64,000 nt of DNA from Nitrosopumilaceae archaeon (GTDB lineage: Archaea > Thermoproteota > Nitrososphaeria > Nitrososphaerales > Nitrosopumilaceae). The stretch is taken from contig OZ242365.1 in NCBI GenBank assembly GCA_965208905.1, positions 1,248,001 through 1,312,000 on the forward strand, in the 5' to 3' direction. A model generated the notes under the pieces. The model made no database searches, was not told the origin of the DNA, and was given only the letters and a program-made list of their open reading frames with translations. This document shows positions 4,004 through 30,525 of this stretch, piece after piece; the first letter of the stretch is position 1, and each line of letters opens with the position of its first letter. The position numbers and the translations under genes were made by a program.

Positions 4004-4090
4004 TACTGGTAAGAAACGCTGACCTGTTGTATGGTTGGGAAGGTGCTGACCCGGAGTGGAAACGGGGGTTTTGCACAATCAGGCATGCAG
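4004..4090 (+). repeat. TIR-less internal site (B-arm plus GGAGTGGAAA)
   Basis: CTGGTAAGAAACGCTGACCTGT...TGGGAAGGTGCTGACCC then GGAGTGGAAA (4053) and GCACAATCAGG, matching the other end modules. Confidence 0.75.
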
Positions 4091-4170
4091 AGCTGAAATT
4101 AATTCGCGTGTAATGTATGACCGGATCCGCCCATCAACTGTAGTATGCGGACATCGGTGGTGAGTTAATA

Positions 4171-5406
4171 TTATGTGCTGGCATAATTTTCCGCCCGCTC
4201 CAACGCAAGCTTTACATCCATATCGCTAGGGTCGTGCTTTTCTGCCTTTTTGAGCCACTCTTTGGCATCCTTGTACTGTTTTAGTTTGAAATACTTCATG
4301 CCGACTTCATACGCGGTGTCAACGGTATCCGCCAACTCATGCGCCTTCTTGGAAAATTTAATTGTCATATCAGGGGTAAACCCAAGCTCCTCCAGCCTGC
4401 TGGTGGCCAACCAATATGCATCTGCTGAGTCGGCGCATATCTCAAAGGCCCTATCCACATGCCCCTGATAATCCTTACCTGCTGCTCTGAACCCGTCCAC
4501 TATATCGCACATGATCCGCGCCGCATCCATGCGTAGCCATTTGGCCTCTTTCTTCTTGCTCGTGGGAATTACCTTCACATGCTCCAAGAGGGAGTTTAGT
4601 GCCTGATGTAATACGTCTCCAGCACCTTTGTTACCGATATGTGCCAATGATCTTCCGTAACACATTAGATACTTCCAGTCGGAGTGACCGCGCACTAATC
4701 TCAGACTGCTCACCGCATCCTTATGCCTACCTGCCTCCGAGAGCTCCCGGCCACTGTAAAAAGCATAGTCGTCGCGACCAAGCACAACCTCAAACAGATC
4801 CTTTGCCAATGCGATGCATACTCTTGGGCTGAGATTCGTGTCTTCCAGTGTGTGGGTATGGGTGTGGCGTCGCTCGAACAGATCATCATATTCTTCCACA
4901 TCGATTTTTCTTTCATCAAGTACACGGTTGGTGACATCTAAACTGTTGACCGCCTCCACACTCTGGAAGTTTAGCGCGGATGCTGCAAGGGACTCTATCA
5001 GCATGGGTTGCCGTATATCACATGCTTCGTCAATCAGGGTATTAAGATCCTTGATACTAATAGTAAAACTACCGTCATTGGCAATGTCCTGAACATGTTT
5101 GCGGAGCACCTCATCATGGCGGCGCGTGTTATCCACACACCAACTGTCTGACCAGTCCAACATATCCATCACCAACAGCACATTGAGTATGAGTTCTTGC
5201 GGCATGGGTTCGCCGTCCCCATACATGAATCTCTTTTTTGTCCTGCAAAACTCCTCGATCATAGTACAGACTGCCACCGGAACCTGCTTTTTGAGAACTG
5301 GAGGGAGTCTGTACGCCTCGATATGCTCCTCAAGACGGTGCAGGTGGCTCAACGTCCGCTCATACGTGAGGTGTGAGAAGATAGTGTTTCTGTTTTTGTG
5401 TCGCAT
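4171..5406 (-). CDS. Putative HEPN-domain plus TPR-repeat protein
   Basis: VAVCTMIEEFCR, NFQS and LFERRHTHTH (R-x4-H) in the N-terminal half; TPR-like helices, e.g. AYEVGMKYFKLKQYKDAKEWLKKAEKHDP, in the C-terminal half. Confidence 0.6.
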   Translation of the reverse strand: MRHKNRNTIFSHLTYERTLSHLHRLEEHIEAYRLPPVLKKQVPVAVCTMIEEFCRTKKRFMYGDGEPMPQELILNVLLVMDMLDWSDSWCVDNTRRHDEVLRKHVQDIANDGSFTISIKDLNTLIDEACDIRQPMLIESLAASALNFQSVEAVNSLDVTNRVLDERKIDVEEYDDLFERRHTHTHTLEDTNLSPRVCIALAKDLFEVVLGRDDYAFYSGRELSEAGRHKDAVSSLRLVRGHSDWKYLMCYGRSLAHIGNKGAGDVLHQALNSLLEHVKVIPTSKKKEAKWLRMDAARIMCDIVDGFRAAGKDYQGHVDRAFEICADSADAYWLATSRLEELGFTPDMTIKFSKKAHELADTVDTAYEVGMKYFKLKQYKDAKEWLKKAEKHDPSDMDVKLALERAENYAST

Positions 5407-5964
5407 TATGGTCTATGATGCGCGCCCCATTGCAAAAATGTTTTGTTCATTTGTCGAATGTTATGGGTACACGTTTAGGCTAAGCGAACTTTGCGTCACA
5501 ATCATACCTGAATACCACATTAACCCATTCCTTTGATAACATAGTTGCAGGCAGACATGGAGTGCGGCGCGGACACATTCTGACAGTTCCCACCCTAGAT
5601 CTCTGTCTTGATGTTGGATTCTGCGACAGTTAACTACTTGGCGGTGGCCATGTACCAGTCGAGTATGGGGTATGCGGACCTCCCAGTACAGGTACATCAC
5701 ACCCACGGCATCCTGGAGCGGGAGCTCACCAGACTGGACGCCCTCTCCACATGCGACCTCCATACGCTGGTGCCGCGCAGACCCATACAGTACGACCCAC
5801 TGCAGGGAGTCTCTACCGAGTGATTAGTGGTTGTTAACTTGTTGTGTGGCAAGGTGCTGGCCACAAGAGGCCGCAATCCGGAGACTTACATAGATGGGTA
5901 GACAGGGATCCGGCCCACATGGGCGTTCAGACGGTTAATATGGCCATCCCATAGTTTTGAGCCA

Positions 5965-6234
5965 ATGGACAAGAACGAACTCAAGGAGTGGATAGAGGCC
6001 ACAAGAGGCAGTGTGCCTTATGGCGCGTGGACTATCGGCATTACCGTCAATCCGGCGGAACGCAAGAAGGCGCATGAGGCTGACAACAAGAATGTGGTGT
6101 TCTGATGGCATCGGGAGGCCAACAGCAAGCAAGTAGCACAAGATGCGGAGACATACTTCCTGGACAAAGGGATGAAGGGCGGCAGAGGCGGCAATATTGG
6201 TGACAACGAGACCGTCTATGTGTACATATTCTGA
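5965..6234 (+). pseudogene. Small GIY-YIG-like protein, paralog 2, with in-frame TGA
   Basis: MDKNELKEWIEATRGSVPYGAWTIGITVNPAERKKAHEADNKNVVF*WHREANSKQVAQDAETYFLDKGMKGGRGGNIGDNETVYVYIF; TGA at 6103-6105 aligns with a Trp of paralog 1. Confidence 0.85.
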
Positions 6235-6335
6235 TTTTTTAGATGGTTAGAGACGGCTAGGACACTCTATAGACGGAACTATGACAGATGTAATGGTCTT
6301 ATAGAGATGATCGATTGAGTGGGTGCGGCGGCGCC

Positions 6336-6830
6336 CTATGATATGGTTATTGGTCGTCTAATCTTTAACTTTGTTGCAATATCAATAAGGTTTCGTGTTT
6401 TGTTTTCAAGTTCGTTGTTTTCACCGTACTTCTTCCACATGTGAGATCGGCTGTTCTTTAGTACTGCCGGATCGTCGAACTTCTCAACCAGCCAAGATTC
6501 TATCTCAATAATTTGGGCAACACCTGTCGTATAGTTATCCTCATCTGGAAGTTGTGTGAGGTTGTTTTCAATATTAAGACGCAACAGTTCTAGCCGCCGT
6601 ACATGCCTTGTGAAATATAGTTCGAGCATCATCGCCTTCTCGTCACTGTCATGCATGTCCATGGATTTGGAGTTAATCGTGCTTGTAATTTTTATCAGTT
6701 CACGTACGTTGTTGTTTATTGTTTTTTTCACATACCTTTGCCGTTTATTTTCATCTGACCTTCTACTCCACCATACATATAGGCCAAATCCAACACTAAA
6801 CAAGGAGAAGTATGGTATAATTTCCTCCAT
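6336..6830 (-). CDS. Hypothetical protein with N-terminal membrane anchor
   Basis: 164-aa ORF; hydrophobic YFSLFSVGFGLYVWW followed by a basic coiled segment. Confidence 0.6.
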   Translation of the reverse strand: MEEIIPYFSLFSVGFGLYVWWSRRSDENKRQRYVKKTINNNVRELIKITSTINSKSMDMHDSDEKAMMLELYFTRHVRRLELLRLNIENNLTQLPDEDNYTTGVAQIIEIESWLVEKFDDPAVLKNSRSHMWKKYGENNELENKTRNLIDIATKLKIRRPITIS

Positions 6831-6851
6831 GATCTGTCCATCTACCGTATA

Positions 6852-7544: not shown

Positions 7545-7970
7545 TCACAAGCCTCCGTTATTTAGCCTGCCGAACATGAAGCACCGACCATTCAGCCGCC
7601 TCCCGCTCTTCATATCCAATGCATCTGACATGGGCAAGACCATGGTGTGGATCCGTTCCATGGCGTGGTCTCACAGCATGCCTACATAACCCCACAACTC
7701 TTATCTGGTTCACTATTCGTCAAATTAAGTGGACTAGGGTTGGGCACTTAAGTGTATGGGTCCCTGACGGCTGTTAAGTTAGTGTGACCTGGGATCTGTT
7801 GTTAAATCTGTGACTTGGGTGTTAAAGGAGTGATCTGGGGGGGGGGGGGGGACAGTGTTAAATCTGCGAGGTCGTGTCGGGGGCGGTGCTTGTGCTAAGC
7901 CTAAACGCGTACGACGGCGCGGCCAGATGATATAAATAGCCACGCTGCCGATCACGCCCAATGAACAGAA

Positions 7971-8228: not shown

Positions 8229-8360
8229 GTAGGATACTCTGTACTGGTCCCGATTCTCGGCCCTACACCCTAGGAGCCGAACCCTTGGCAACTGGAAAGT
8301 TAGTGGGGGATGAGATCTCTTGAAAAGTTGGGAGATGGCGGCTCGACGGATACAATATAG

Positions 8361-8623
8361 TGAACTGTTCAGTTAACAGCGCCTGTTCAATTATAGCGCC
8401 CGGAGTGGAAACGTCGGTAGTGCACGATCAGGTGTGCGGAGTGGAGATGAGGTCAAAATGGTGGGGTGGAAATGGTGGCCGTATACCTAGGTTTCTAGTC
8501 TAGGGGAGCTGGGAAGATACGGTGACCTGTACAAAAGTGGGAAATGTGTGACCTAGAATCTGGGAAATGTGTGACCTACCTACATTTCCACTCCGCTCAA
8601 TCAACCACCATTTCCACTCCAGG
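8361..8623 (+). repeat. Internal left-end variant L2 with motif module, B-arm and an inverted motif pair
   Basis: TGAACTGTTCAGTTAACAGCGCCTGTTCAATTATAGCGCCC (29/41 to TIR); motifs at 8402, 8438, 8463; B-arm 8506-8554; TTTCCACTCC at 8585 and 8611. Confidence 0.85.
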
Positions 8624-8658
8624 TGTAATTGGTTACCACGAAGCATTACGTAATATTA

Positions 8659-9325: not shown

Positions 9326-10627
9326 TTACTCTCTTTGAGCCTTTGTTGCTACCTCTATGAGGGTCTTCCACTTGTTTGTACCATCTATGATAATACCCGC
9401 GGCTTCAGCTGGAGTTTGACCATCTGCTAGTCCAAGGTGTGGGCGTACACAGTTATGATATATCTTCAAGCCACTTACTATGGGGGAGTCCTCGCGCTTG
9501 AGACCACGCGCTGCCTCCTCGCGATACCTGAGTGTATTACCATTGAATGATTCCATTTGGTTGTTGTGGTGGATGCCGTCAAACGCGACATCGTTTACAT
9601 GTTGGGTTTCTTTGTGTAGGAAGTTCTTGGACTTGTACTGTTTCTCCCATGCGTTGTGAAAGTTGGCCGCACCATCCGATATCAGAGTATCTGGAACTTT
9701 ACCTGCAATCTCCTTTGCATGTGCAAACATGGGCGCGACATCATCATTTCCTTTGTGTTCTGCAACCATCTTTGAAATCCAATACCTTGTACCAGAGTCC
9801 AGCATAGCGAATAGATATCTCTTCCTTCCCTTGACCTTCATGTGTAACTCATCAGTACGCCATGCCTCACTGAGCCGTGGGTGGACTGTATCGATATATG
9901 ACTCCATTAGTTCTGCATACGTAGAGCCCCAGTTCTGTATAGTCCTGTAGGTTATCTTTAGTCCCTTCTGCTTTAGATGGTTTGCCACCTTCCTAGATGA
10001 TAGTCCGGCAAAGTACATTCCTACTGCTGCGCAGACATCATCAGGCGTAGCGCGCTTCCTCTCGAATCCAAGGTTTTGGATGAATCGTTTCCCACATGTC
10101 TTGCATCCATACTGTTGCTTCTTGCCTCGTACACCCTTCTTGATGATGTGTATGGAGTCGCAGAACTTGCATCTGGTATGGTTATGTGGCTGTATTATAC
10201 GTCGTTCCCCATTATGCCACTGTACTGCCTGAATGTGCTTACATGTACTGCCCGTATGCATATGGTCTGGGCATGAACATATCCATCCATTGCCAAAGTC
10301 GCGTACTTCATAGGATTCATCCTTGCTTTGTGATTTCACTAAATAGTGGTCTGATGCGATACGTTCAACCTGTCCGGCGGCTTGATGTATCATCATACCG
10401 CGGTCAGCGCGTGCCTTCATTCCAAGCCGCTCTTCCAGCGCGTATGCGTGCTTACAATATTGTGTATTATCCGGACAGTTACAATCCCAGCCGGCCGTAG
10501 TACGGCATAGTGTATATTGTACATCTGGTGTGGTCTGTGAACAAACCTGATACGTAGACTCATCCATACGATACATCTGATGTTTCTTTTTTGTTATGTT
10601 TATTCCTCGTTGTTTTCTATAATTCAT
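9326..10627 (-). CDS. SWIM-Zn-finger / Zn-ribbon / HTH / IS6-like DDE transposase, copy 1 (433 aa)
   Basis: Start MNYRKQRG set by homology to copy 2 and the shared promoter. SWIM motifs CNCPD..CKH and CSCPDH..CKH; CKFC..CKTC; WRTDE, LISDG, NNQMESFN (DDE triad). Confidence 0.88.
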   Translation of the reverse strand: MNYRKQRGINITKKKHQMYRMDESTYQVCSQTTPDVQYTLCRTTAGWDCNCPDNTQYCKHAYALEERLGMKARADRGMMIHQAAGQVERIASDHYLVKSQSKDESYEVRDFGNGWICSCPDHMHTGSTCKHIQAVQWHNGERRIIQPHNHTRCKFCDSIHIIKKGVRGKKQQYGCKTCGKRFIQNLGFERKRATPDDVCAAVGMYFAGLSSRKVANHLKQKGLKITYRTIQNWGSTYAELMESYIDTVHPRLSEAWRTDELHMKVKGRKRYLFAMLDSGTRYWISKMVAEHKGNDDVAPMFAHAKEIAGKVPDTLISDGAANFHNAWEKQYKSKNFLHKETQHVNDVAFDGIHHNNQMESFNGNTLRYREEAARGLKREDSPIVSGLKIYHNCVRPHLGLADGQTPAEAAGIIIDGTNKWKTLIEVATKAQRE

Positions 10628-10662
10628 TTGTGTGGTAACGTATCGGTAGTATTTAAGGTGGT
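10628..10662 (-). promoter_or_regulatory. Promoter of transposase copy 1
   Basis: ACCACCTTAAATACTACCGATACGTTACCACACAA-ATG, 33/35 identical to 36470-36504; contains TTAAATA box. Confidence 0.75.
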
Positions 10663-10835
10663 AAAAGTCAATCTTAAGGTATGGAAGTACGCCTGTGAAA
10701 GTTGTGGCCATACACGGACTACGCAGAACGAAGTTTATTCCAGTATGGAAGTTAACATTCCGTACAGTTGCCAGATAGTTGGGACTAGATGACTGGAGGT
10801 TGCCAATCGATTGGTTTGACACTGCTTGAAATTAT

Positions 10836-11555: not shown

Positions 11556-11823
11556 TCATATCCTCATACCCCTCCAATAAGAATTCTCGATCCGACTATT
11601 ATCAGACCTGAATGACTTCTTCCGATATAGTTTGTCGACCTTCATGTCGAGCTTGTGATGAGCCTTGAATAAATCTGGAGGCATTGTATTAGTATCATAT
11701 AGGTCTGCAAGAGTGGATTCCGGGCGTGCATTACGCGCGTCTAATACTACCTGCGCATATGATTCCAACACATCCAATGGTTTGTCCGGGATGGGGAATG
11801 TGTTATAAACCATGCCTCCCACA
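11556..11823 (-). pseudogene. C-terminal remnant of an MmeI-like type IIL restriction-modification enzyme
   Basis: VYNTFP...AQVVLDAR...STLADLYDTNTMPPDLFKAHHKLD..VDKLY is the MmeI C-terminal pattern; the 5' part is cut off exactly at end copy L3. Confidence 0.8.
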
Positions 11824-11965
11824 TGAACTGTCCCATTAATGGCGCCTGTCCCAAAATAGCGCTTGGAGTGGAAGTGGTGGTCCTGTACGATCAGGAGTGT
11901 GGAGTGGAAATGAAGTTTGTTTTAGCGGGGTAGAAATAGCGGTCTTCACACGTTTCCACTCCACT
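11824..11965 (+). repeat. Internal left-end copy L3 with motif module
   Basis: 38/41 to TIR; motifs at 11865, 11901, 11927; inverted TTTCCACTCC at 11953. Confidence 0.9.
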
Positions 11966-12011: not shown

Positions 12012-14530
12012 TTACTTAACCGGGAGCATGTCGATTGCATTCGCGGAAGATCCGTCTGTCAGTCCGGTTTTGTGTTCCTTATCTATTTCATCATCAAACA
12101 CAATCTTAAAGTCGCCCTTCAAGACACCGCCTATTACCTTCAGGTTGCCAGCGTTAAGTGTCTCACCAAGCAATCCCAATACCTTCTCCTTGTATGCAGT
12201 ATCGGGGTTTTCAAGATGCCGTCCCTTGGTTTCGTATATGCGTAATTCTCTCTCATCCTTTCTGCTGAATACGGCAACGAAATCAGGGTATATTTTGTGC
12301 TCCTGCCAGCCGCGCAGATAGTACTCGCCGCGCCCTTTGGCGGCCACCCTGTGCCACCACTCTATTGCTTTGGCATCATCCAGATAGCATGCAAACTGAC
12401 GTTCCGTATTAGTGCCAAAGTCCTCCTTATATACGGGTTCAAACAGACTCCTCTGTACCGGCTTCCCTCTCTTCTTTTCCAATAGACGACCATCATCACG
12501 CAAGGCCTTATACTCGCCCCTCATTTCGAATACACCCATTGGTGCATGCATGTCAAACCGGATGGTCTTACTTTTTAGTTTTGCTTTGAACACTCCCTCG
12601 GCCTTCTCAATGACTTGGGTCTTCAAACCTTCAAGCAGCATATCCTGCAACTCTGCTTCATTTGAGAGAATCTCACCCTCGGACATTCCGGTATCGTTCC
12701 AGAACGACTGTACTATCCTTGCAGCCTGCCATGCGTTGGGAACCAAATCATCGACTATTGATACCCATTCGGCCAGATTTGGTCTATCTGGAATAACACC
12801 ATCTTCATGTACATAGTCCCATCCACCATCTACCGTACCGATTTTGACTGTGTCTGATATAGGTTTTGAATTCCCCCCAACGGTATCCACCTGAACTGTT
12901 ATGTCGTTCCAGTCTATACTGTGCAGTATGTGCTTGTCATAGTCAATATCAATCCATTTTTTACTGTCCTTATGAAGTACTGTTGGAAGGCGTATCTTCA
13001 GTTTTTCAAATTTGGAACGTCGTTTGTTGATTGGCCTGTCCGCTTCCTGCCCACTGTTGGTGTGACGTATTGGTACTTCTGTAAGACCCTCATTATCGAG
13101 TTGTTTCTGTATCCACTCGATCAGTTTTTTGATGTCATCATACATACAAGTCACATAACAACTGTCCAGAGACTCATTACCAGTAAATTCCGTGTACGGT
13201 TGGCGCAATATGCGGCCAAGCAGTTGCGTAAGAGATGTCGGACTCTTTATGTTGTCCAGAATCACCAACATGTATGCGAACGGACAGTCCCAACCCTCCT
13301 TGAGTGCATCTTTGGTTATTATGTACTGTATTACTGTGTCACAACTCATCAAATCTTTGTCACGTAGGTCGTCATCTTCCGATGTCTTTATCGCAACCTG
13401 TTCTGGCGGTATGCCAAGTTCGCGTATGAGATAGTCTTTTACGTCATAAGCGTGTATGTTTGCACCGTCATGCTGTTTCTCACTGGTACGTTCCACACGT
13501 ATTACCATTATAGGCCTGATGTATCGGTACCCCCGAGCTGCAACATCCAATTTTCGTAGTTTGACAACCGACTGCCTGAGCGTACCCTGCCAGTTTAAGT
13601 TGCTGGTTGTCACCTGAATCTGTTTCTTGATCATTGCTTCGTTTTGCAGATCCATCCCGCTGACTACACACAGTATGTTGCTCTTCTCTAGATTCGGCGT
13701 TGCAGACAATTCAATTACCAGTCTTGGTCCCAATCTGTTGACTTGTTCCGCCCACTTGCCAAAGTTTCTAGCGGATGCCTTGTGTGATTCATCTAGTATT
13801 ATTACAGGTTGTATGATACGGAGTACGTTCATCAGACTTTTGCGCGGTATGTCTGTACCATTGATCATGTCCAGCCCTGGATTGTCCCTCTTTAATTTGG
13901 AGATCTTGTCATTCTCATCGGCATCCGGAAAGAACTCACATACATTCTCATTGTCGCGGGTCATTCTTAAAAAATCATTACTAATCCGATTGGTAGCCTG
14001 TAGCGTCAAGGGCATTATACAGAGGTTGTCGCGCAGCACGTTCTTCGCAATTCTATCATCCTTTGTCACTATCTCCACCCTATTACCACTGATAATGTCA
14101 AGCAGTTGTCGTATCGGATGTGTCTTGTCCTTGAGTATGGTTATAGTCTGTTCTTTTATGGTCGTACTAGGTACCATCCACAGTACCAAACCCCGGCTGC
14201 TTCCAATCCTTTTCAGTATGGCGGCGGCCATTCTGGTCTTGCCACCACCGGTCGGGACCTGTATGCACACATGTGGTATAGGCCTACCACCCGGGCCCTT
14301 GCGGTCATGCCATTCTATAGGGGCATTTCCATGAAAATCTCGCCACACACGGGCTAAATTGATTTCTGAGTCATTGCGCATGTGTTTAATCTGATCTTCA
14401 TCAACCCAATCTGTTCCATTTTATGGATAGTGGCTTTTCTATCAGCGACCTGCTTATATTCTTCCTTCAACATGCTGTACCATCGCTCAAACTCTTCAAC
14501 TACCTCTAGTTGATACTCCTTGAGCGGCAT
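12012..14530 (-). pseudogene. res: Type III restriction subunit Res 1, with a 1-nt frameshift near the 5' end
   Basis: QVPTGGGKT, DESH, EGWDCP, PDF..YETKG. ATG 14530 overlaps the mod stop (MPLKEYQLEV...) but is out of frame with 12012..14381; one extra A in the run at 14419-14422 fuses them. Confidence 0.75.
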
Positions 14531-16419: not shown

Positions 16420-16472
16420 GCGTAGCGACCACATCGTCGCGTAGCGACCACATCGTCGCGTAGCGACCACAT
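16420..16472 (-). repeat. 19-bp tandem repeat (~2.8 copies) upstream of mod 1
   Basis: Top-strand unit GCGTAGCGACCACATCGTC. Confidence 0.9.
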
Positions 16473-16827
16473 ACACACGCTACGATCAGACAGCATACTG
16501 TATGATTTACTATTCATCGAATAGGACATCTGAAGTGTGTGGACACCACAATTCTTCATACAGAAGTATCGTAAGTGGTGTCGTATAAACATTGAACATC
16601 TCAGTTCACCTAGAGTTGGACCATCAAGATATGTGGGGGTGAGTCTGTGTGCCAAAAAGAACAACAACTCCGGGTCAGCAATTATACAGTCTCGGTAGGT
16701 CAGCAGGATCATACAGCCATTCTTGAGAAGATCCGTAGGTGACGCGTGTTACACTATACAACAGGTGACGTAGATGTTACAGCCCCTTCATCTCAACACA
16801 CCTTTATAAAACAATTTATTCAAAACA

Positions 16828-22114: not shown

Positions 22115-22256
22115 TGGACTGTCCCATTAATGGCGCCTGTCCCAAAGTGGCGCCTAGAGTGGAAACGGTGGTCTAGTGAGATCAGGAGTGCGGAGTAGAA
22201 ACGAGGTCAAAATTCTGGAGTGGAAATAGTGGTCGTAGACCTATATTTCTAGTCCA
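22115..22256 (+). repeat. Internal left-end copy L4 with motif module
   Basis: 40/41 to TIR (TGGACT start); motifs at 22156, 22192, 22217; GACCTATATTTCTA follows. Confidence 0.92.
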
Positions 22257-22333
22257 GGTGTAGATTGCTCTCTACAACCATGAGGTAACGGCGCGTTGTT
22301 CGATTTATATATCACACACACATCAAGGCTCAC

Positions 22334-22846
22334 ATGAAATTTGAGGAGTTGGATGCCGAAACCAGAAAGTGGATGCTGATCGAATTTGAAGCCGAAGAGA
22401 GTAGTAAGCCCTTCCGTCCCCGCACCCTAGATCACACAGGTCTAGCGAAGTTTGCGGAGATCATGAGGAAGGCGATTCAGACTGGAGACATACAGAGTCT
22501 AGAGGGCGATTTGTCACCATATGTAGTGCACTCCCCTGTTAACGCCGCCCACCGATTAGCCCACTCCGAGTTCACCACTTGGTACACAAGAGGGTTCGCA
22601 AGGCGGCTTATAGCGGAAGGTGTTGAACAATGTGAGGTTTACCGGGGAGAGGGGGCGCGGCAGCCTAGATGTGCCTGCTCACGTCTTGAAGGTAGTGTAG
22701 TGAGTGTAAAGGCTGTCTATGCCGGGCACCGGGTACCGTACCATCACAATGAGTGCAAGACGTCTAACTATGACGGTCCGCCAATCACAATCCCCAATGG
22801 TCCGCTATGCCATCACACAATTAGGCGCGCTCATAAATGCGAGTAG
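22334..22846 (+). CDS. Hypothetical protein, Cys/His-rich C-terminus
   Basis: 170 aa; TTTATATA ~24 nt upstream; EFTTWYTRG, CACS, IPNGPLCHHTI. Confidence 0.7.
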   Translation: MKFEELDAETRKWMLIEFEAEESSKPFRPRTLDHTGLAKFAEIMRKAIQTGDIQSLEGDLSPYVVHSPVNAAHRLAHSEFTTWYTRGFARRLIAEGVEQCEVYRGEGARQPRCACSRLEGSVVSVKAVYAGHRVPYHHNECKTSNYDGPPITIPNGPLCHHTIRRAHKCE

Positions 22847-22922
22847 ATGCATGGGCTGTAACAACTTTGCATGCTGAGACCTAGTGTAACATCTGCGTGC
22901 TGAGTGGCCGGAGTCAGATCTT

Positions 22923-23246
22923 CTATCTAATTCTACCAAACTTGACCGGTTTGAAGCCCTTACTACCACAACTTCGCCGTTTGTTTTTTGATCTCCTAAA
23001 CGGTGGTGATATGTCTATCCACCGCACAGCCGGTCTTGTGTGGTATATCACGCGTGGTTTGGTTATCTGGGCCTCTACTTCATCCATACGCTGGAGCAGC
23101 TCCATGTCTATCTCGCCACCCTCGCTGACCGCAGCAACCACCTTGTCTAGCAGGTTGCGGGTGTTTTTCAACTCCTGTTCCATCTTGGTGATTTGTTCGG
23201 TGAATTGTTCTAGTCTTGTCTCAATACCTACATCATCATTTGACAT
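22923..23246 (-). CDS. Hypothetical coiled-coil protein
   Basis: Heptad-like N-terminus; TTTAAAA box about 22 nt upstream on the minus strand. Confidence 0.5.
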   Translation of the reverse strand: MSNDDVGIETRLEQFTEQITKMEQELKNTRNLLDKVVAAVSEGGEIDMELLQRMDEVEAQITKPRVIYHTRPAVRWIDISPPFRRSKNKRRSCGSKGFKPVKFGRIR

Positions 23247-23383
23247 GCTAGCTCAACGGGCGTGACCATTTTAAAGATTGAGGTTTGATGAAGATTCCCA
23301 CCACACAAACTTTCTACCGGATCCCATCACACAGTAAGTTTCCAGTTCTTCCCCATTTCTTCATTTTTTAGAATTCATTCGGC

Positions 23384-23480
23384 TGAACTGTCCCATCTAC
23401 AGCGCGTATCCCAAAACAGCGTGTGGAGTGGAAATATGGGGTAGAACTGATCAACCATCGATCAGGTGTGCGGAGTTAGG
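23384..23480 (+). repeat. Internal left-end variant L5
   Basis: TGAACTGTCCCATCTACAGCGCGTATCCCAAAACAGCGTGT (30/41), then GGAGTGGAAA at 23425 and CGATCAGGTGTGCGGAGT. Confidence 0.85.
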
Positions 23481-23598
23481 GTTGAACTGGGAATATACGT
23501 CAAGCCGGTGTCGGGTCACTTTTTGTCGAAGTCAACTCCTGACACCACCAGAGTTTCAATTCAGAAGTTTTATTAAACCCACTACCTTATTATACATA

Positions 23599-23648
23599 CG
23601 GATCCCGTCAGCCGTTGCTGGCTACGAAATCTAGAATTTCAGGGACCG
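23599..23648 (-). ncRNA. Candidate DUF3800-associated structured RNA (three-way junction)
   Basis: CGGTCCC/GGGATCCG outer stem, GAAAT/ATTTC hairpin, GTAGCC-AGCAAC-GGCTGAC hairpin; starts 6 nt after the DUF3800 stop. Confidence 0.55.
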
Positions 23649-23654
23649 ACATTC

Positions 23655-24410
23655 TTATCTAACCACGTACCCAGTGGAATAGAAGCTTCCATCCAGCCGA
23701 AAGTACTTTGATTTGATTGACTTCCATCGATTCTGCTTCTCATTGTTGGATACTGCCTTGATTTGAACCGCATAGGCAAAAAAGTCCGCAAGTTGCAAGA
23801 TTGGGTGGTCGGCTGGTTCACCACTTTTGATGTTACCGAGTATGTTGTTCAATTCAACATGATGTCTTCTCGACAATGCCCATCTCAACATCCTCATTCC
23901 CCTTTGAACTCTGGCACGATCAGCATGAGTGAACCGTTCATAGATGACAGAGCCGGTTGATTTTTCATCAACCAAAAAGTCTTGGAATCTCTCCAACATC
24001 ATCAACATGGTGTATTCTTTGGGGTGTGCAGGTTCTATGTACTGTTTATAGTGGGCATCCAAGTCCAGCGTGACTGACAGGAGTGTGCAAGGCGACTGAA
24101 TGATTATGTTGAATATGTCATCGGCTAGGCGGAGTCTACTTTCACCACTTATTATACTGTATTGTGATGCTCCTTGGATGAGGTCATGATAGTGGAGTTT
24201 GAAATCTGGAGCCAATACCTTCGGTTTCAGGTATTTCTTTATCACTGACTGTATCTGCTTCTCCACCTCACCCACATCCGCATCAGGCACTATGATTCCG
24301 GCCAAGGTAAAGAATGCGGAACTGTTTTTGTATTTGGGTCGGTCTTTGACATAAGGTCCTGGATCTCCAGACTCGTCAATGTACAGAGAGTGTGTCATAT
24401 ACCCGCGCAT
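23655..24410 (-). CDS. DUF3800-domain protein
   Basis: N-terminal LYIDESG and C-terminal ILQLADFFAYA signatures. Confidence 0.85.
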   Translation of the reverse strand: MRGYMTHSLYIDESGDPGPYVKDRPKYKNSSAFFTLAGIIVPDADVGEVEKQIQSVIKKYLKPKVLAPDFKLHYHDLIQGASQYSIISGESRLRLADDIFNIIIQSPCTLLSVTLDLDAHYKQYIEPAHPKEYTMLMMLERFQDFLVDEKSTGSVIYERFTHADRARVQRGMRMLRWALSRRHHVELNNILGNIKSGEPADHPILQLADFFAYAVQIKAVSNNEKQNRWKSIKSKYFRLDGSFYSTGYVVR

Positions 24411-24632
24411 TAACCTGCTTTCTATATAGTGTTTATGATGTATGAGTTTTCCCGTAATGGATTTAGGGTGGAAACATAGGCGATACGAGTGGGGCAGAAA
24501 TAATAGTCAGGTGAAACACATGCCTAAACGTCATTCTGAGGTAAGCGCCATATTTGTGGGACGGTTCATCAAAAGTGAACAGTTGCAAGTCTTTAGCGAG
24601 GACATCAAGCTCCGCAAAACTCAGTGCGTTCT

Positions 24633-26240
24633 TTACATCCACATGATGGTGCAGTCAAGAGATTCAGAGATGAGTTGTACAGTTATAGCCATGCGTTCGT
24701 TGTTCTTGCACCCCACAAGTGCATTTGGAGGCATCACCTGCATAACACAGATGTTGTCTTTCAAGTCCACCCCGTCCATGCTTTGCCATACGAGTTCGTT
24801 ATACGGGCGTTGCGCAATCACAAAATTCCGCCCGGTTGGGGGAAGTTGTTTTATCTTGCCGTTGAGCCATTTTAGGGCATGCTTCCATTCAAAAACACCA
24901 TCCTCGTCCCCACATCGTCCTAGATTGTTTATGTTGAATCGCTCACCCCATTGTAGTGATTTCTGTATATTATAGGACATTTCCGTCATGCCGTCCCACG
25001 CCTCAATGTGGATATCCTTCCCATACTCGTCCTCCAATAAGATATCTACCGTTTTGTCAGATACCTTTCGTTCCACCCCTACCGATTTGAACATGCCGGA
25101 CTCATAAAACAACTTGGCCAACTTCGTGTGCCAAACATTCCCCTCTTTCCGCCGTTTCCAATCCCTAACCGTGTGCAACTTGTGCACCAGTATACACTTT
25201 CCTACTATCTTGGTATTTGGATCCTCAAGCCATGCTTCTAAGCCATCTCTCTCCTTTTTCTCGGCGGCTGTCTCAATAAACCCTATCTTGAATGTGTTAT
25301 TGCCACGCCTCCAAAACATATGATGGATCTTGGCATGAATACGAGCGATGTAGAGGTCCAACCAAGCATCCACCAAACTGATAGCATTCGCACGCTTTTG
25401 ATCAGACACCACGCTTGCATGTTCAAGATCCAACCAAGCATCCACCAAATCGGCAGTTTTTTGTTTGACTTTACTCGCCTCGTCTAGTTTGGACTGCCAG
25501 TGGTCGATGCCGAATGGACCCTCACCCATTACAAACATCATGTTGGCAAGAAGTTTTAACGCTACATCTGTTTTTTGCTTCTCACAGAGGAACATCCATT
25601 GCAGCGCCACCGGTAGGTCGTTGGGCAATACGGCAGCCACGCGCGGCGCTAAAAACCTTGGCTCTCTCGTCTTCACCAACTCATGTATGTGCCGTACACC
25701 CTCGGCGTCGAAGTGATCTCTGCATTTCCGCAACCCAAATAATATCGCCGTAAGATCTTTTGCACCTGCCTGTTTGATGGCCAAAACCAGCGCTCCCCAC
25801 ACTTTTGCTTGATTGGTCTCCATCATCTTGCCAAATACATCTTGTAGACAAGTGGTACTAGCAGCTTTCAGAATAAGAGTACAGCCTTGTTGTACCGAAA
25901 TTTTATGCTCACTGAGATATAGTTGTACTACCTCTACCCACAACCCGTCGTCCGATCGGATCGGCGTTTCTGACAGCGCTTTGATTAATCTTACTGGTGG
26001 TTTGTCTTTCCTATACCGCTCATAACACAGTTCTAACGCATCCTCCACCATGTCATATCCGCCTTTTTGAGCCTCCCTTATTTTTTCCACAAACTCGTCT
26101 GGTGGGATATCTCTGTACTCTCCTGTCTGGTTCCACCGTTTCAACATGGATTTCAAGTCTTTCATTTCACCACCTAGCTTAGCATCAAATATTAACATTC
26201 GATGTATTTGAAATAAAACCACATTGAGACTCAGGGTCAT
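24633..26240 (-). CDS. Hypothetical protein, helical N-terminus and possible C-terminal PD-(D/E)XK-like nuclease
   Basis: 535-aa ORF; VERKVSDKTVDILLEDEYGKDIHIEAW pattern; start uncertain. Confidence 0.55.
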   Translation of the reverse strand: MTLSLNVVLFQIHRMLIFDAKLGGEMKDLKSMLKRWNQTGEYRDIPPDEFVEKIREAQKGGYDMVEDALELCYERYRKDKPPVRLIKALSETPIRSDDGLWVEVVQLYLSEHKISVQQGCTLILKAASTTCLQDVFGKMMETNQAKVWGALVLAIKQAGAKDLTAILFGLRKCRDHFDAEGVRHIHELVKTREPRFLAPRVAAVLPNDLPVALQWMFLCEKQKTDVALKLLANMMFVMGEGPFGIDHWQSKLDEASKVKQKTADLVDAWLDLEHASVVSDQKRANAISLVDAWLDLYIARIHAKIHHMFWRRGNNTFKIGFIETAAEKKERDGLEAWLEDPNTKIVGKCILVHKLHTVRDWKRRKEGNVWHTKLAKLFYESGMFKSVGVERKVSDKTVDILLEDEYGKDIHIEAWDGMTEMSYNIQKSLQWGERFNINNLGRCGDEDGVFEWKHALKWLNGKIKQLPPTGRNFVIAQRPYNELVWQSMDGVDLKDNICVMQVMPPNALVGCKNNERMAITVQLISESLDCTIMWM

Positions 26241-26424
26241 ATTTTTGGAGAGTCATAGTTCTTGACTCCTTGGAAACCTCAATACCATCAAGCCTTAGTC
26301 ACTTTTTTGAGGTCATCATATCTCACACCTCCAACCACTTTTTTTGACCCTTACTTCTCATCTCCCATCTCAACACCACTGCAACCCATTAACACCCATA
26401 TGTCCCCCACCGATTTAGGTACTT

Positions 26425-26943
26425 GTGATTGAATCCTGGGGGCCTGTGATCGGGGCTGGCATCATTGTAGTGGGAGCGGTGGCGATGCAGTTGTTTATCT
26501 ATCGTCGTACCATCAGTGAACGCCGTAAGGAACGGGAGCGCGGGCGGGTAAATGCCGTCAAGGACCTGTATTGGGGGCTACGCGCAATATATTCCCAGAG
26601 GGTGTTCACCAGTCATAAAGGCATTAAGATAGACCCGTTCTACAATTTTCTGATATACCCAGAAGACATTGACTGGCTACGGCAACACTTCCACAAGAAC
26701 GGCCACCTTCTCTCTGCCGAAATACATGAAGCATACCATGCTGAAATATCAAACACACAAACCCGACCAAGATTGCTGAACCCAGACAATATTCCCCCTG
26801 ACATTAGGAAGTTTGTTTTGTCCGGCCCGGTTTCTGGCGGCAACCTACCACTACTCTTTCTGACTACCAAGAAAGATCTATTCTCTCTAGACTCAGACAC
26901 GAAGCTACCAAACGATGCGGTACTTATCCCGAAAGACCAATGA
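26425..26943 (+). CDS. Hypothetical membrane-anchored protein (paralog of 10836..11552)
   Basis: N-terminal TM, basic coil, WLRxHF..G.LL motif. Confidence 0.6.
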   Translation: MIESWGPVIGAGIIVVGAVAMQLFIYRRTISERRKERERGRVNAVKDLYWGLRAIYSQRVFTSHKGIKIDPFYNFLIYPEDIDWLRQHFHKNGHLLSAEIHEAYHAEISNTQTRPRLLNPDNIPPDIRKFVLSGPVSGGNLPLLFLTTKKDLFSLDSDTKLPNDAVLIPKDQ

Positions 26944-27097
26944 TGCCATGAACCTTCTGCATTCTGCTAGGTAATCTCGGCCTCTGTTTCTCACGACGAG
27001 AGCAGGTGTTGTGAGAAGATCCCTACCTGACATACTGGCGGATGTTCTATCAGGGTCATGTCCGGGATCATCCCCAGAAAACTCCAGCCCATTAGGC

Positions 27098-27340
27098 CTA
27101 AGAGTCACCACTTGGTATCTGAGTCTTTATGTTGCTCCCAAACAAATAACCGCCGATTGCGCTCATCATGGAGAGTAGTATATGACTAAAAATCAGATAG
27201 TCCGACGACACGATGCCGGCTGCCTGCAAGCACACCATCACGAAGGAACCTGCTATGATGATACCTATGAGACGCATGAAAAATTTCTGCATCGGAGTTA
27301 TTCGTTGCTCTCGTATTCTGCGAACCAAAGTCAACCCCAC
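27098..27340 (-). CDS. Small two-TM membrane protein
   Basis: Two hydrophobic helices ending AIGGYLFG; overlaps the upstream mini-gene. Confidence 0.55.
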   Translation of the reverse strand: MGLTLVRRIREQRITPMQKFFMRLIGIIIAGSFVMVCLQAAGIVSSDYLIFSHILLSMMSAIGGYLFGSNIKTQIPSGDS

Positions 27341-27495
27341 GATATTGGTCCTCTACATCTGGGGCAGGGGTTGGTCCCCTTCTTCACCACTAGATTACAG
27401 TATGGACAACGATAAATTTTGGTCTTGGAGTCAGTTATGGCCTTCGCCAACGCGATACCCAGTATAATCGCACCTGCTACCGCAACCCATGCCAC
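27331..27495 (-). CDS. 54-aa TM plus zinc-ribbon mini-protein (not in ORF track)
   Basis: MAWVAVAGAIILGIALAKAITDSKTKIYRCPYCNLVVKKGTNPCPRCRGPISWG; TTAAATA ~22 nt before GTG. Confidence 0.7.
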   Translation of the reverse strand: MAWVAVAGAIILGIALAKAITDSKTKIYRCPYCNLVVKKGTNPCPRCRGPISWG

Positions 27496-27647
27496 GGAAC
27501 CTGTCTTACGGAGAACTATTTAACTTCTTGCGTGCACAGGTTCTGGGAAATCTGCGTGTGATGGGTGAGCCTGGGAAATGCGTGTGATGAGGTCAAGAGT
27601 GGATCTCCTCAAGAACGTTCGTTGACCGACTGGGGAGCTGTCAAAAG

Positions 27648-27715
27648 GAGCTGGGAAGAAATGCTGACCTGTAGAAAAGTGGAAAAGATCTGACCTAGAG
27701 TGGAAACGTAGGTTA
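27648..27715 (+). repeat. TIR-less internal site (B-arm plus motif)
   Basis: GAGCTGGGAAGAAATGCTGACCTGTAGAAAAGTGGAAAAGATCTGACCT then AGAGTGGAAACGTAGGT. Confidence 0.75.
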
Positions 27716-27804
27716 CACCAAGCCGGTCAGAGTAGGCATAGTGAAGCGGTCCCGCGTGAGGGACGGATGTCGTCAAAGTGGATGGTACATAATGAGATGA
27801 GCAG

Positions 27805-29124
27805 CTACGGGGAGTTGTCTGCCGGTACCAGAAATCCAGATTCCCAAGAAACACCATCATCCTCATAATTCTTTGAAAATATCACAATGGGTATATCATC
27901 ATTAGGTCGTTCCTCCCGTATCTTGACTTGCTCTTTTTTTATCGCCGCGCGTTGGTCTGCCTTGGTTGAGTTGTGGTTGACGATGACGGTTATCCAGATT
28001 GTGTTTGCTCTCAGGCGGTATTCTGTACTGCGACCGGTTGTTTGCAACCAGCGGAAGGCTCCCCAGGCATCCCCCTCAAATGCAGTAGCCTCTTCCTCTG
28101 ATAGATCCGCAAGAGCTTCAAATATTTTTTTGGACGTCAGGATATTGGTCACTGTCTCCGCCCGGGTGTCGGCCACTTGATTCTCGATGACATCAACCAG
28201 TTCGACTACAGATGGTGGCATACCGGCCATCCTTTGCCTGTATCTCGAAATCATCTGGCCCATCTCAATTTGGATGGAGTCTGATTCAAGAACCCTCTTG
28301 CGGTCCTTTTGGACTGCTTTTTGAAACCTTCTCTCCCGTGCCGGTGAGGGCCGGAGTGAATATGGAAATGTAATCTCAACACGACTCTGTAGGAGCCCCC
28401 AGAAGTCGCCGTCGTCGATTGTGTGCGGACTTGCAATAGCCCCGCTCTTGTTGATACGCGTTCCCGTCCAGCCCTTCAGGACATGGGGGTGAACGGTTGT
28501 GACGAAAACCATGTCTGCAAGCTTGGCATATGTGTATATTCTAGTGTTGCTAGTGACCATCGTACCATCGGTGGCGCGACGCATGTACCAGTTGGTCTTT
28601 TCATGTATGCCGTCTGTAATATCCATACTTCCCAAGATGAGAAGGTGGCTCTCATAGGGATGTACGGCCTGCCTATTATCCAACAAGAACTCCCGCCATG
28701 TTGCTTCCGCCGACTCTATCTGCGGACCAAATTTAGGGTGGTTTGATTTGAATGCTTCATATTCCATCCTCAAGACTCTCCAACCCAGTGATATGGCAAA
28801 CCGCTCCAACCAACTGCCGTATTCAAGGCGGCTGTTACTGCCATTGTGGAATGGATAGAATATCTTGTCCGCGAATAATGTCTCAAGACTGGAAAATCGT
28901 TGCTCACAACTACTACACAGCATACGATATCTAAGAAGATCCTGAGCATGTTCTGCATTGTTACCGTCAACTCGTGCAAGGGTTTTGGTCGCGGATGTGT
29001 CCTTAAGCCACTTGCCTACGAATTTGGGTATTATGTGGCTTGCCTGAAGATCGCCGCTGCGTCCGCACAGAGCACATGTTTCGATGCTACGGTCCTGTGC
29101 ATCCTTGGAGATCACGTCTACCAA
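27805..29124 (-). CDS. HNH-like Zn-binding domain protein
   Basis: CALC...SHIIPKF...LCSSCEQRFS N-terminal pattern. Confidence 0.65.
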   Translation of the reverse strand: MVDVISKDAQDRSIETCALCGRSGDLQASHIIPKFVGKWLKDTSATKTLARVDGNNAEHAQDLLRYRMLCSSCEQRFSSLETLFADKIFYPFHNGSNSRLEYGSWLERFAISLGWRVLRMEYEAFKSNHPKFGPQIESAEATWREFLLDNRQAVHPYESHLLILGSMDITDGIHEKTNWYMRRATDGTMVTSNTRIYTYAKLADMVFVTTVHPHVLKGWTGTRINKSGAIASPHTIDDGDFWGLLQSRVEITFPYSLRPSPARERRFQKAVQKDRKRVLESDSIQIEMGQMISRYRQRMAGMPPSVVELVDVIENQVADTRAETVTNILTSKKIFEALADLSEEEATAFEGDAWGAFRWLQTTGRSTEYRLRANTIWITVIVNHNSTKADQRAAIKKEQVKIREERPNDDIPIVIFSKNYEDDGVSWESGFLVPADNSP

Positions 29125-29160
29125 TGGCCTTCACCACTTATATTATACGCGGTTAGGTGG

Positions 29161-29295
29161 GAGTGGGAAAACACGGTGACCTCGTGAAATTTGTGACCCG
29201 GAGTGGAAATGGAGGTTTGCAGAATGTACTGCGTGGAGTGGAAATGAGGTCTAGTATGATGAAGTGGAAATACAGTAGATGACCTATGTTTCCGG
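29161..29295 (+). repeat. TIR-less internal site with full three-motif module
   Basis: Short B-arm ending TGACCC; motifs at 29200, 29235, 29261; GACCTATGTTTCC follows. Confidence 0.85.
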
Positions 29296-29327
29296 TCCGC
29301 AGACAGTCCGGATGGATGCCCTGGCCG

Positions 29328-30449
29328 TTAATTACAGTCGGGCAAGAGACTGTTGTCCTCTTGCAGGAATTTGAAGGCCGCACTCAACGAGGCCCGTACC
29401 GCGCCTATATTGTCCGGCTCAAATCGCTGTTTCACCAACACGATTCCATTGCCGGCAGTCTGGAGGGTCTGGCCGTCAACCTCCACTGTTTCAATATTGG
29501 CATCGAACACGCGTTTTATATCGGCCGCGGGTTCTAGCGAAACCGAGATCAGCGCCATTCCGTCTTCCATCCTGTCTTTGATGATTTTCACCATCTCTTT
29601 GTCTCTATATGAGAACCCGATCACCAACAACACGTCAACCTTCTCAATCTTCTCCTCAAAGCGTTTCCACAAAGTAGAGAACGGCTCCCTGCCATAATCC
29701 TTCGCGCCCTCGGTGGGGGCTACCATAACATCCTTCTTGTTATCCCTTGCCGCAACCATTGTACCCTCCACGATGTCCCCGTCAACATTCTCATGCCAGA
29801 ATATGGAGCCGTGTAGTTTTATCAGGTGCATGTAGTTGTCCGCGTCGGTTGACCACTCGTCTCTCCAGACAAAAACCCCGCGGCCTTCCTGTCTGAAACC
29901 ATTGACTACAACAAGATCCTTCTTGTCGCAGTATTCCTCCATCACACGATCATAGTTAGTCGTAAACACCAGAAATTCACCCATCCCACCATCACCAATA
30001 ACCGACCAAACCATGTCGTACATCTGCCTAATCGAGTTACGGGAATCCGATTTGATAATGAATGATTCAAGCAGGACATCGCGGATGACGAGGTGGACAC
30101 GCCTCAAGGCATTGATTGTGTTCGTTAATAGACCATTTGCATTCATCACCAGAAAGACCGGCCTGATGTTGGACACATCGTCACGCAGGTGCAACATCCG
30201 CTCTATCCCATCGTATAATTTCTCAACATCTTTGTAGTGGTCGTGGTTAATGATGGTTTCTGTAATGCTATCCAGATTGTATGCATCTTTACCCGTATTT
30301 TTGACACGCGCCCGTACCTCGTCCATCAACTCCGTGGTGGTAGGCAGGTCCACAAACGCCGAAGCCCCGGCTCCCAGAAAAAGGGCGGTGCGCATATGCG
30401 GCATGTGGTGCAGACCATAATAAACCATTCTGCCGCATGGATCTGTCAA
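29328..30449 (-). CDS. SIR2-like (SIR2_2) protein
   Basis: LFLGAGAS, FTTNYD, LIKLHGSI, LLVIGFSYRD; the true start is probably near MRTALF. Confidence 0.88.
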   Translation of the reverse strand: MTDPCGRMVYYGLHHMPHMRTALFLGAGASAFVDLPTTTELMDEVRARVKNTGKDAYNLDSITETIINHDHYKDVEKLYDGIERMLHLRDDVSNIRPVFLVMNANGLLTNTINALRRVHLVIRDVLLESFIIKSDSRNSIRQMYDMVWSVIGDGGMGEFLVFTTNYDRVMEEYCDKKDLVVVNGFRQEGRGVFVWRDEWSTDADNYMHLIKLHGSIFWHENVDGDIVEGTMVAARDNKKDVMVAPTEGAKDYGREPFSTLWKRFEEKIEKVDVLLVIGFSYRDKEMVKIIKDRMEDGMALISVSLEPAADIKRVFDANIETVEVDGQTLQTAGNGIVLVKQRFEPDNIGAVRASLSAAFKFLQEDNSLLPDCN

Positions 30450-30482
30450 AAACCAGAGTCCTATACAACGCTGTCAAAAAAG

Positions 30483-30525
30483 TGACTTGGGGTGGAAATG
30501 GTGGTTGTATACCTACGTTTCCAGC
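30483..30525 (+). repeat. Partial internal site
   Basis: TGACTT-GGGGTGGAAATGGTGGTTGTATACCTACGTTTCCA, close to 8463-8497. Confidence 0.75.

Follow-up and report, generated by a model that had tools for sequence, protein, structure and literature searches.

Transposons of the Tn7 and Mu type have ends built from several repeated transposase-binding units, their left and right ends are unequal, and they carry large cargo, often of the defence type. For the IS6 family of insertion sequences (IS), the sections of PMC7986276 drawn on here describe members of 0.7–0.9 kb, with a few of up to 1.76 kb, inverted repeats of 15–20 bp, duplications of 8 bp and tips consisting of GG plus an internal cTGT motif; according to these sections a passenger gene was reported for a single member, and there are clades with a zinc finger and additional N-terminal sequence. 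Thaumarchaeal insertion sequences are described as elements of one or two genes in the part of PMC6563490 used here, and for sponge-associated ammonia-oxidising archaea the part used of PMC7848895 reports a joint enrichment of transposases and restriction-modification systems. Here we analyse a stretch of 64,000 nucleotides (the window) from a Nitrosopumilaceae archaeon (contig OZ242365.1 of assembly GCA_965208905.1), which contains a transposon of 34,881 bp bounded by terminal inverted repeats (TIR) and, inside it, further repeats termed B-arms. The original prediction, made from the letters of the window, had taken TIR and B-arm for the left halves of two classes of recombination sites comparable to attI and attC of integrons. 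We propose, with a probability of about 0.8, that the B-arm is the transposon terminus of sister lineages in an IS6-related family that also owns the TIR, and that the sites are stacked transposon ends.

Positions without prefix are those of the window (position 1 is its first letter); the source genome, 2.21 Mb in size and 99.6% complete, is called G000. The TIR-type transposon spans 3085-37965 and is flanked on both sides by the 8-bp target site duplication (TSD) GATACGTC; its left arm (3085-3125) and the stretch 37925-37965 are 100% complementary to each other. The two flanks are contiguous around a single GATACGTC in the sister genome G083, the left flank aligning at 650-710 and the right one at 702-762 of the same locus. 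Since this empty site has only one copy of the 8-mer, 3085-37965 represents one insertion with an 8-bp target duplication. Its outer features are:

3077..3084, no strand: left TSD copy GATACGTC, one copy at the G083 empty site
3085..3125, plus strand: T-type terminal arm of the left end, two units of 17-18 nt, CTGTCCCA-n-GGCGCC (Tandem Repeats Finder: period 17, 2.1 copies)
3127..3237, plus strand: subterminal module of the left end, m1-m2-m3, three GGAGTGGAAA motifs, m3 paired with an inverted copy (nhmmer E 2e-21)
36505..37806, plus strand: transposase, 433 aa (Pfam and NCBIfam scores below)
37843..37965, minus strand: right end, with three plus-strand GGAGTGGAAA motifs (37851-37913) followed by the T-type arm in inverted orientation (37925-37965)
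37966..37973, no strand: right TSD copy GATACGTC

In the transposase of 433 aa, an IS6/IS240-type DDE domain is accompanied by an IS1/IS1595-type zinc ribbon and two SWIM-like CxC..CxH motifs. The protein was matched by PF13610 with 48.4 bits (cut-off 27) and by PF04434 with 29.4 bits (cut-off 19.6), and the second SWIM-like motif is visible on reading the protein sequence. A second transposase copy (9326..10822, minus strand, likely start MNYRKQRG at 10627) shares 59% identity with the 36505 copy and 79% with the transposase of a B-type element (G000:1100973-1102244); PF13610 matched it with 43.2 bits. With the NCBIfam IS6 equivalog model NF033587 the two copies scored 92.5 and 84.8 bits, respectively, both below the cut-off of 125, and thus the match to IS6 is one at domain level only. 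Homologues of the transposase were found in 58 of 151 family genomes (E<=1e-30), a tally that includes G000 and the unpublished genomes G077, G092 and G093. Each of the four long transposase genes is immediately preceded by a conserved leader of ~60 nt with a TTAAATA box (36445-36504 in the window); the DNA farther upstream differs.

B-arms are tandem bipartite units, CTGG(G/T)AAG-n4-G(C/G)TGACC followed by (T/G)TGGGAA(A/G)-n3-4-(G/C)TGACC, and all five copies named in the original prediction are present where it had placed them. Two of them have to be described differently. The copy given as 8506-8554 spans 8505-8577, has three units and is followed by inverted motifs, not by motif 1, and the letters TGACTT at 30483, regarded as a remnant, are unit two of an arm that is complete and of a different subtype (CTGTCAA...GTGACT, 30439-30488), which adjoins a motif-3-type hairpin. 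If up to 3 mismatches are allowed, the first B-arm unit, CTGGKAAGAWAYGSTGACCT, occurs 4 times in the window, compared with an expectation of 0.02 and fewer than 4 in each of 100 shuffles; this test is circular because the pattern was derived from the same window copies. Independent support for the enrichment comes from a profile of the four window copies (nhmmer, E<0.01), because 34 of its 38 matches in the genome lie beyond the four seeds. For GAGTGGAAA, which starts directly behind the arms (see below), 46 matches with at most one mismatch were found (14.6 +/- 3.8 expected; 0 of 100 shuffles reached 46).

We scanned the genome for ends of the form (G/T/A)G..CTG followed by a bipartite unit and paired plus and minus ends less than 60 kb apart, which resulted in 172 inverted pairs. 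The outer 8-bp flanks were identical in five pairs and differed at one base in two more, compared with a total of 0 perfect and 3 one-mismatch pairs in 20 shifted-flank controls. One of the five perfect pairs is the T-type element of the window, the other four have B-like arms:

G000:1100770-1109752, 8,983 bp: TSD GATATGGT; transposase 79% identical to the second copy of the window; Eco57I-like restriction-modification gene
G000:1471027-1472847, 1,821 bp: TSD TAATTTTT; empty site in G083
G000:1755517-1756105, 589 bp, TGTTAA subtype: TSD TATGACAT; empty site in G083
G000:1903198-1905272, 2,075 bp, TGGGTA subtype: TSD CCTAAAAC

The G083 empty sites of the 1,821-bp and 589-bp elements contain a single copy of each 8-mer, and for the 2,075-bp and 8,983-bp elements just one flank was found in G083. 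Because B-type pairs have 8-bp TSDs and, in two cases, empty sites in the sister genome, B-arms are termini of mobile elements. Sites with a B-arm had been called TIR-less, which is a misnomer since the B-arm is itself a terminal repeat. In paralogous units of arm and cargo (window 4002 onward and G000:1767781, minus strand) the homology starts at the outer arm tip, and the upstream DNA is unrelated. The element of 589 bp corresponds to a miniature inverted-repeat transposable element (MITE) or non-autonomous element: it is short, has inverted family termini, a TSD and an empty site, and lacks a transposase.

The junction between arm and module was investigated at module starts, which were counted with an nhmmer profile of the three-motif module (m1-m2-m3, ~100 nt; E<0.01, model start <=6). 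The genome contains 24 such starts. A B-arm of the GTGACC/CTGACC type stands in front of 15 of them and a TIR arm of the GCGCC type in front of 6; the remaining 3 have neither. In all 21 arms preceding a module start, the arm end ...CCYR is located directly before GAGTGGAAA, and the same register was observed in eight further genomes of the genus, at 23 module starts retrieved from them; the module model matches nine of ten genus genomes, the sole genome without a match being 87% complete. The claim that motif 1 directly follows either the TIR or the B-arm therefore agrees with 21 of the 24 starts. In the genome-wide alignment that had been suggested as a check, left-arm identity changes sharply and in register at the CCYR / GAGTGGAAA boundary, and staggered junctions between B-arm and module, named as an observation that would speak against the claim, were not found. 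The view of two site types with a common right half is borne out as far as the shared GGAGTGGAAA module and the sharp boundary are concerned, but the left halves comprise many arm types, not two.

The T arm, like the B-arm, is a tandem repeat of two units of the same kind. All arm tips read (G/T)GnnCTG, with GGnnCTG(G/T) in B-type and related arms and TGAACTGT or GGAACTGT in T-type arms. Across the genus at least 10 arm core types precede modules, with the 5' cores TGTCCCA, TGTTCAG, TGTTCCA, TGTAACA, TGTAAAG, TGGTAAG, TGGGAAG, TGGGTAG, TGGGGCA, TGTCAAG and TGTTAAG; the 3' halves are GCGCC, GTGACC/CTGACC or CGATACA, and one and the same core (e.g. TGTAACA or TGGTAAG) is found with either 3' half. 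Of 39 arms that could be parsed (from 47 sites), 22 have the same 4-nt core in units 1 and 2, and in 10,000 shuffles the mean always stayed below the observed one, with the reservation that the parser is crude and that related copies are not independent. In all six cases in which both are known, the arm type follows the transposase lineage:

36505 transposase copy: arms TGTCCCA/GCGCC
G000:1708421 transposase, 70% identical: arms TGTTCAG/GCGCC
G000:1100973 and window 9326 transposases, 79% identical to each other: arms TGGGAAG/GTGACC
G043:C73 transposase, 65% identical: arms TGTAACA/GCGCC at both ends
3.6-kb relative (see below): arms GGTGCA/GTGACC

The arms are a diversifying recognition system and not a two-class attI/attC pair.

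The polarity of the ends could be derived from elements with TSDs. A TSD-verified left end runs from the arm inward through m1, m2 and m3, and a TSD-verified right end runs from the transposase gene through two to four same-strand motifs to the inverted arm. The two ends are unequal because the motifs keep the same absolute orientation, that of the transposase-gene strand, at both. Among seven copies of the long two-SWIM transposase, six have at least one motif between gene and terminus and five at least two; for the shorter one-SWIM transposases this is the case at 0 of 16 loci, which include L014 from the unpublished genome G077 as well as L001 and L004, which seem to be the same contig. We infer from the sequences that the module provides accessory binding sites and goes with the N-terminal repeat that the long transposase has in addition.

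In the reading of the sites as stacked transposon ends, each end consists of a lineage-specific arm with the IS6-like tip (GG/TG)nnCTG and two to three units CTG-xxxx-A..N3-6..G(C/T)G(A/C)CC, and in lineages with the long two-SWIM transposase the shared subterminal GGAGTGGAAA module follows the arm. The DDE transposase might read the arm units, cut at the tip and insert with an 8-bp staggered cut, with the module probably providing accessory binding sites for the assembly of the complex and the discrimination between left and right. The ...CCYR / GAGTGGAAA boundary would part a fast-diversifying recognition arm from a conserved module, and it would be sharp because the two meet there. B-arms inside the 34.9-kb element would be the ends of other family members, nested or accreted. 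Co-oriented arrays could have been generated by nested insertion in the same orientation, followed by a transposition using the outer left end and the inner right end, or by deletion between duplicated transposase/right-end segments. We also infer which part of the protein may read which repeat, and how the solo ends and mosaics described below may have originated.

The arms and modules nested inside the element of the window are the following:

4002..4052, plus strand: B-arm, units CTGGTAAG..GCTGACC and TTGGGAAG..GCTGACC; solo left-end terminus
4054..4104, plus strand: truncated module behind the 4002 B-arm, m1 and spacer (nhmmer model positions 1-52)
7767..7830, plus strand: TGTTAA-subtype arm, same subtype as the TSD-flanked 589-bp element
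8361..8503, plus strand: T'-type arm, CTGTTCAG..AGCGCC, two units, with full module; internal left end
8505..8628, plus strand: three-unit B-arm (8505-8577), then two inverted GGAGTGGAAA motifs (8578-8628), the layout of the TSD-verified end G000:1100770
11824..11965, plus strand: T-type arm with full module; internal left end cutting an MmeI_C gene fragment (11556-11822)
16660..16720, minus strand: TGTATA/TGTATG-subtype arm, then only GGAGT; same subtype at G000:2130796
22115..22258, plus strand: T-type arm, 95% identical to that at 3085, with full module; internal left end
23384..23443, plus strand: T-like arm (GCGCG/GCGTG halves) with m1
27539..27646, plus strand: further arm, CTGGGAAAT..GTGTGAT, two units, plus the first unit, truncated, of a TGTCAA arm; G018:C152 has a 90% identical copy that lies in front of different DNA
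27647..27715, plus strand: B-arm (27647-27696) with m1 only
29158..29300, plus strand: B-arm (29158-29199) with full module (29201-29300)
30439..30524, plus strand: TGTCAA-type arm, two units, joined directly to an m3-type hairpin (model positions 60-97)
36256..36327, minus strand: B-like arm upstream of the transposase gene, with a 10-nt tip repeat CCAGTGCCTC (x3.6, 36292-36327)

The B-arm at 8505 is the transposase-proximal right end of the element that holds the second transposase (9326-10627, minus strand). Of the internal arms with module motifs, eight are co-oriented with the outer left end and one, at 16720, has the opposite orientation. Co-oriented internal left ends were also observed in G000:1100770-1109752 and in G043:C73, where the outer arm is TGTAACA and the inner one TGTAAAG. 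The left ends at 4002, 27647, 29158, 30439, 7767 and 27539 are solo ends without partner or TSD, and the same applies to the T-type arms at 8361, 11824, 22115 and 23384.

Arms and modules have unlinked histories: across 19 sites (171 pairs), their identities do not correlate (Spearman rho -0.08). Mosaicism is clearest in the left end at 3085, as the comparison with the T-type end at 22115 and the GGGTA-type ends (G000:1447773 and 1905274) reveals:

Arm: 95% identical to 22115, 57% to the GGGTA-type ends
m1-m2: 65% to 22115, 87-89% to the GGGTA-type ends
m3: 79% to 22115, 62% to the GGGTA-type ends
Next 100 nt: 56% to 22115, 56-57% to the GGGTA-type ends

The 5' breakpoint of this mosaic is located within the 10-12 nt stretch CCYRGAGTGGAAAC in the motif-1 core. 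The similarity that starts at the 3127 junction ends ~70 nt later, making it a patch and not a crossover that brings in a downstream cassette. In G018:C152, the module and cargo of G000:1109752 (445 nt, 92% identical) are located behind a different arm stack, with the switch just before the m2 core, whereas at G000:1109752 they are preceded by a B-arm and m1. A further breakpoint is present at 30489, where an arm adjoins m3 directly. A homologue of the open reading frame ORF172 (window 26425-26943) was found 134 bp behind a T-like left end in G135:C1, a weak link. A crossover just 5' of motif 1, as originally predicted, is compatible with the breakpoint in CCYRGAGTGGAAAC and with the unlinked histories, but the ~70-nt patch, the breakpoints at m2 and m3 and the homology of the paralogous units at 4002 and G000:1767781, which begins at the arm tip and not at the junction, do not fit a single point. 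Probably the mosaics stem from recombination or deletion between the short, conserved cores of the motifs in ends of like orientation, and the boundary of arm and m1 is simply the first of these cores.

The integron analogy is attractive, since in integrons too co-oriented repeated sites lie between cargo blocks and one half of the site is common while the other differs. The in-register boundary at 21 of 24 module starts and the one breakpoint within CCYRGAGTGGAAAC could be cited for two site classes, TIR-type and B-type, that recombine at a fixed point 5' of motif 1 as attI and attC do. B-arms, however, are inverted-repeat termini with 8-bp TSDs and empty sites, there are at least 10 arm types instead of two, and both B-arms and TIR arms are tandem direct repeats, not inverted repeats folding into an attC-like hairpin. 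Moreover, genes between the sites are encoded on both strands, and the tyrosine recombinase family PF00589 had 0 matches in G000 at E<=0.001, with all 14 named control genomes positive; it is also absent among the 31 open reading frames of the region scanned with Pfam. We regard such a site-specific system as highly improbable, and the transposon-end reading, which was tested, takes the place of an analogy that proved wrong. Equally remote is the explanation that B-arms are the ends of an unrelated MITE family that inserted beside the module by chance, which the original prediction had named as an observation that would overturn it. B-arms do have their own TSDs, and short B-bounded elements exist, such as the 589-bp one with TSD and empty site. 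Yet B-arms also bound elements encoding the same transposase family (G000:1100770-1109752; window 8505 with 9326), B- and T-type arms have the tip, the unit architecture and the 8-bp TSD in common, and the module junctions are in register and not scattered; the elements are thus relatives of the TIR-type element.

A module-mediated exchange of cassettes has more in its favour, although we consider it unlikely as well. Units of arm, module and cargo would be excised and re-inserted at GGAGTGGAAA modules, either by the transposase in a way comparable to the targeted-conservative cointegration of IS26 or by another factor. The 8 to 1 co-orientation of internal left ends in the window, the same layout in G000:1100770-1109752 and G043:C73, the lack of TSDs at internal ends, the 445-nt block (92% identical) behind different arms in G000:1109752 and G018:C152 and the unlinked histories of arms and modules would all fit, and conservative cointegration targeted to an IS is known in the IS6 family (PMC7986276, in the sections drawn on). 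The breakpoints, however, lie at several places (m1 core, before m2, arm to m3), the mosaic at 3085 is a patch of ~70 nt without downstream DNA, and nested insertion plus deletion, or the use of outer left and inner right ends, yields the same arrays by known processes. It is similarly doubtful that the GGAGTGGAAA module serves as an exchange platform, at whose motif cores family members trade blocks of end and cargo and thereby build a co-oriented array of defence genes. If this were true, cargo would be re-equipped with a different arm and hence with a different transposase specificity, an integron-like accretion without a tyrosine recombinase in archaea. Contigs from public reads (four runs of a single sample, from which the assembly probably derives) are colinear over 22000-38100, one contig of 8,607 nt spanning 22131-30742, and no joint was reported in them; entries with intervening letters are contigs of other module copies. 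These contigs are uninformative on excision or exchange because contigs drop rare variants.

Several observations weigh against the interpretation of the sites as stacked transposon ends. The internal B-arms at 4002, 27647, 29158 and 30439, and 8505 with 36299, have no recognisable partner end or TSD, and they are for this reason only presumed to have arisen by insertion. Several short structures in which two unlike arms face a module from both sides lack a TSD (e.g. G000:1695225-1695414, 1587848-1587978 and 1776911-1777056), and so do three homotypic short elements (1698519-1698704, 1746621-1746793 and 959930-960141). Inspection of the flanks by eye, which revealed no TSD at the six loci, ruled out the hybrid and short structures as MITEs; simple MITE transposition fails for those with unlike arms because of the unlike arms and the missing TSD. 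The co-orientation of internal left ends and the breakpoints in motif cores could reflect an active, protein-mediated exchange and not passive deletion. In addition, the NF033587 score stays below its cut-off (92.5 against 125), and the transposase is the presumed, not the demonstrated, binding protein of arms and modules.

Two further groups of elements outside the window have ends of this type. The 3.6-kb IS6-like relative, which belongs to the single-SWIM branch and has no module, is present in two identical copies (G000:C1:1337692-1341293 and 1851328-1854929) with the arms GGAACTGGTGCA..GGTGACC and GGTGGTGCG..GGTGACC. The flanks of the two copies are arranged in a cointegrate-like pattern, a-IS-(358-bp partial duplicate)-b ... 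b-IS-a, with a being GTCCGTTG and b AAAATAAC, and the ~510 kb between them hold most of the arm and module copies of the genome. TnpB-like elements of 1.44-1.47 kb were found at G000:C1:250605-252075, 394383-395826 and 402423-403864 and near 1691404. They encode only a protein of ~440 aa with Cas12f1-like_TNB and OrfB_IS605 domains and are bounded by T-like inverted arms, GGAACTGTCCCA..GCGCG, with two units; their 8-bp flanks differ at one base, and two of them have empty sites in G083. Judged by these ends, TnpB appears to be a passenger on IS6-type ends.

The cargo of the 34,881-bp transposon includes two type III restriction-modification pairs, a SIR2-like gene, a DUF3800 gene, the MmeI C-terminal fragment, the second transposase and a multicopy IS3-type element. 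The latter (19302-20551) encodes an rve transposase of 344 aa (19360-20394) and has at least 12 further copies in the genome that are 100% identical. A cyclophilin-thioredoxin gene (16843-17919) has copies with 91% identity at G000:366943-368022 and in G083, and looks like a host-gene copy acquired as cargo. Perfect 19-nt tandem repeats are present at 16420-16472 (2.8 copies) and 30713-30767 (2.9 copies), ~130-170 nt upstream of the two N6_N4 methylase genes (14530-16305, minus strand; 30938-33337, plus strand). A search of window positions 1-40000 with Rfam gave no family at the gathering score.

In the literature we found no description of such compound ends or of large IS6-type cargo transposons in Thaumarchaeota, although the supplementary tables of PMC6563490, a source used in part, may list IS6 members. 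New here are the architecture of arm and module, the diversity of the arms with the co-variation of their units, the stacked co-oriented ends and a member of 35 kb with a verified empty site. IS6 is known as a group of small and simple insertion sequences; the archaeal branch presented here reaches 35 kb, with compound, unequal ends and cargo that includes restriction-modification, SIR2-like and other defence-type genes. Transposases and restriction-modification systems are, as mentioned above, reported to be jointly enriched in sponge-associated ammonia oxidisers, and the element provides a concrete vehicle for this. Arm types with co-varying units that track the transposase lineage also offer a natural series for changes in the end specificity of a DDE transposase.

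Compared with IS6 and IS26, as described in the sections of PMC7986276 drawn on, the elements share the IS240/IS6-type DDE domain (PF13610, at domain level), the 8-bp TSD (five pairs, with three empty sites in G083), GG tips with CTGT and N-terminal extensions; the a-IS-b ... b-IS-a flanks of the 3.6-kb relative are a hint of the replicative cointegrate pathway. The small size, short inverted repeats and absence of passenger genes typical for the family were not found: elements range from 589 bp to 34,881 bp, have reiterated arms of 41-75 bp and many-gene defence cargo, and in one subfamily a ~100-bp motif module, unequal ends and two SWIM-like motifs. Even the 3.6-kb single-SWIM relative is far smaller than the present element, which in addition has the architecture of arm and module and the stacked ends. 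The translocatable units and pseudo-compound transposons of IS26 likewise form arrays in which family ends of the same direction enclose cargo and internal copies lack TSDs (PMC7986276, same sections), but the repeated unit here is an end of ~50-150 bp without a transposase gene, and arm types are mixed. Integrons differ in having a tyrosine recombinase and attC sites with a hairpin layout, whereas the sites described here are TSD-flanked transposon termini of many types, with genes in both orientations between them. Among the open reading frames scanned with Pfam, no TnsB/MuA-type transposase or partner ATPase was seen. The multi-unit ends, the inequality of left and right and the large defence-type cargo resemble Tn7 and Mu, but here a single IS6-like transposase is used, the TSD is 8 bp and not 5 bp, and the module motifs have the same absolute orientation at both ends.

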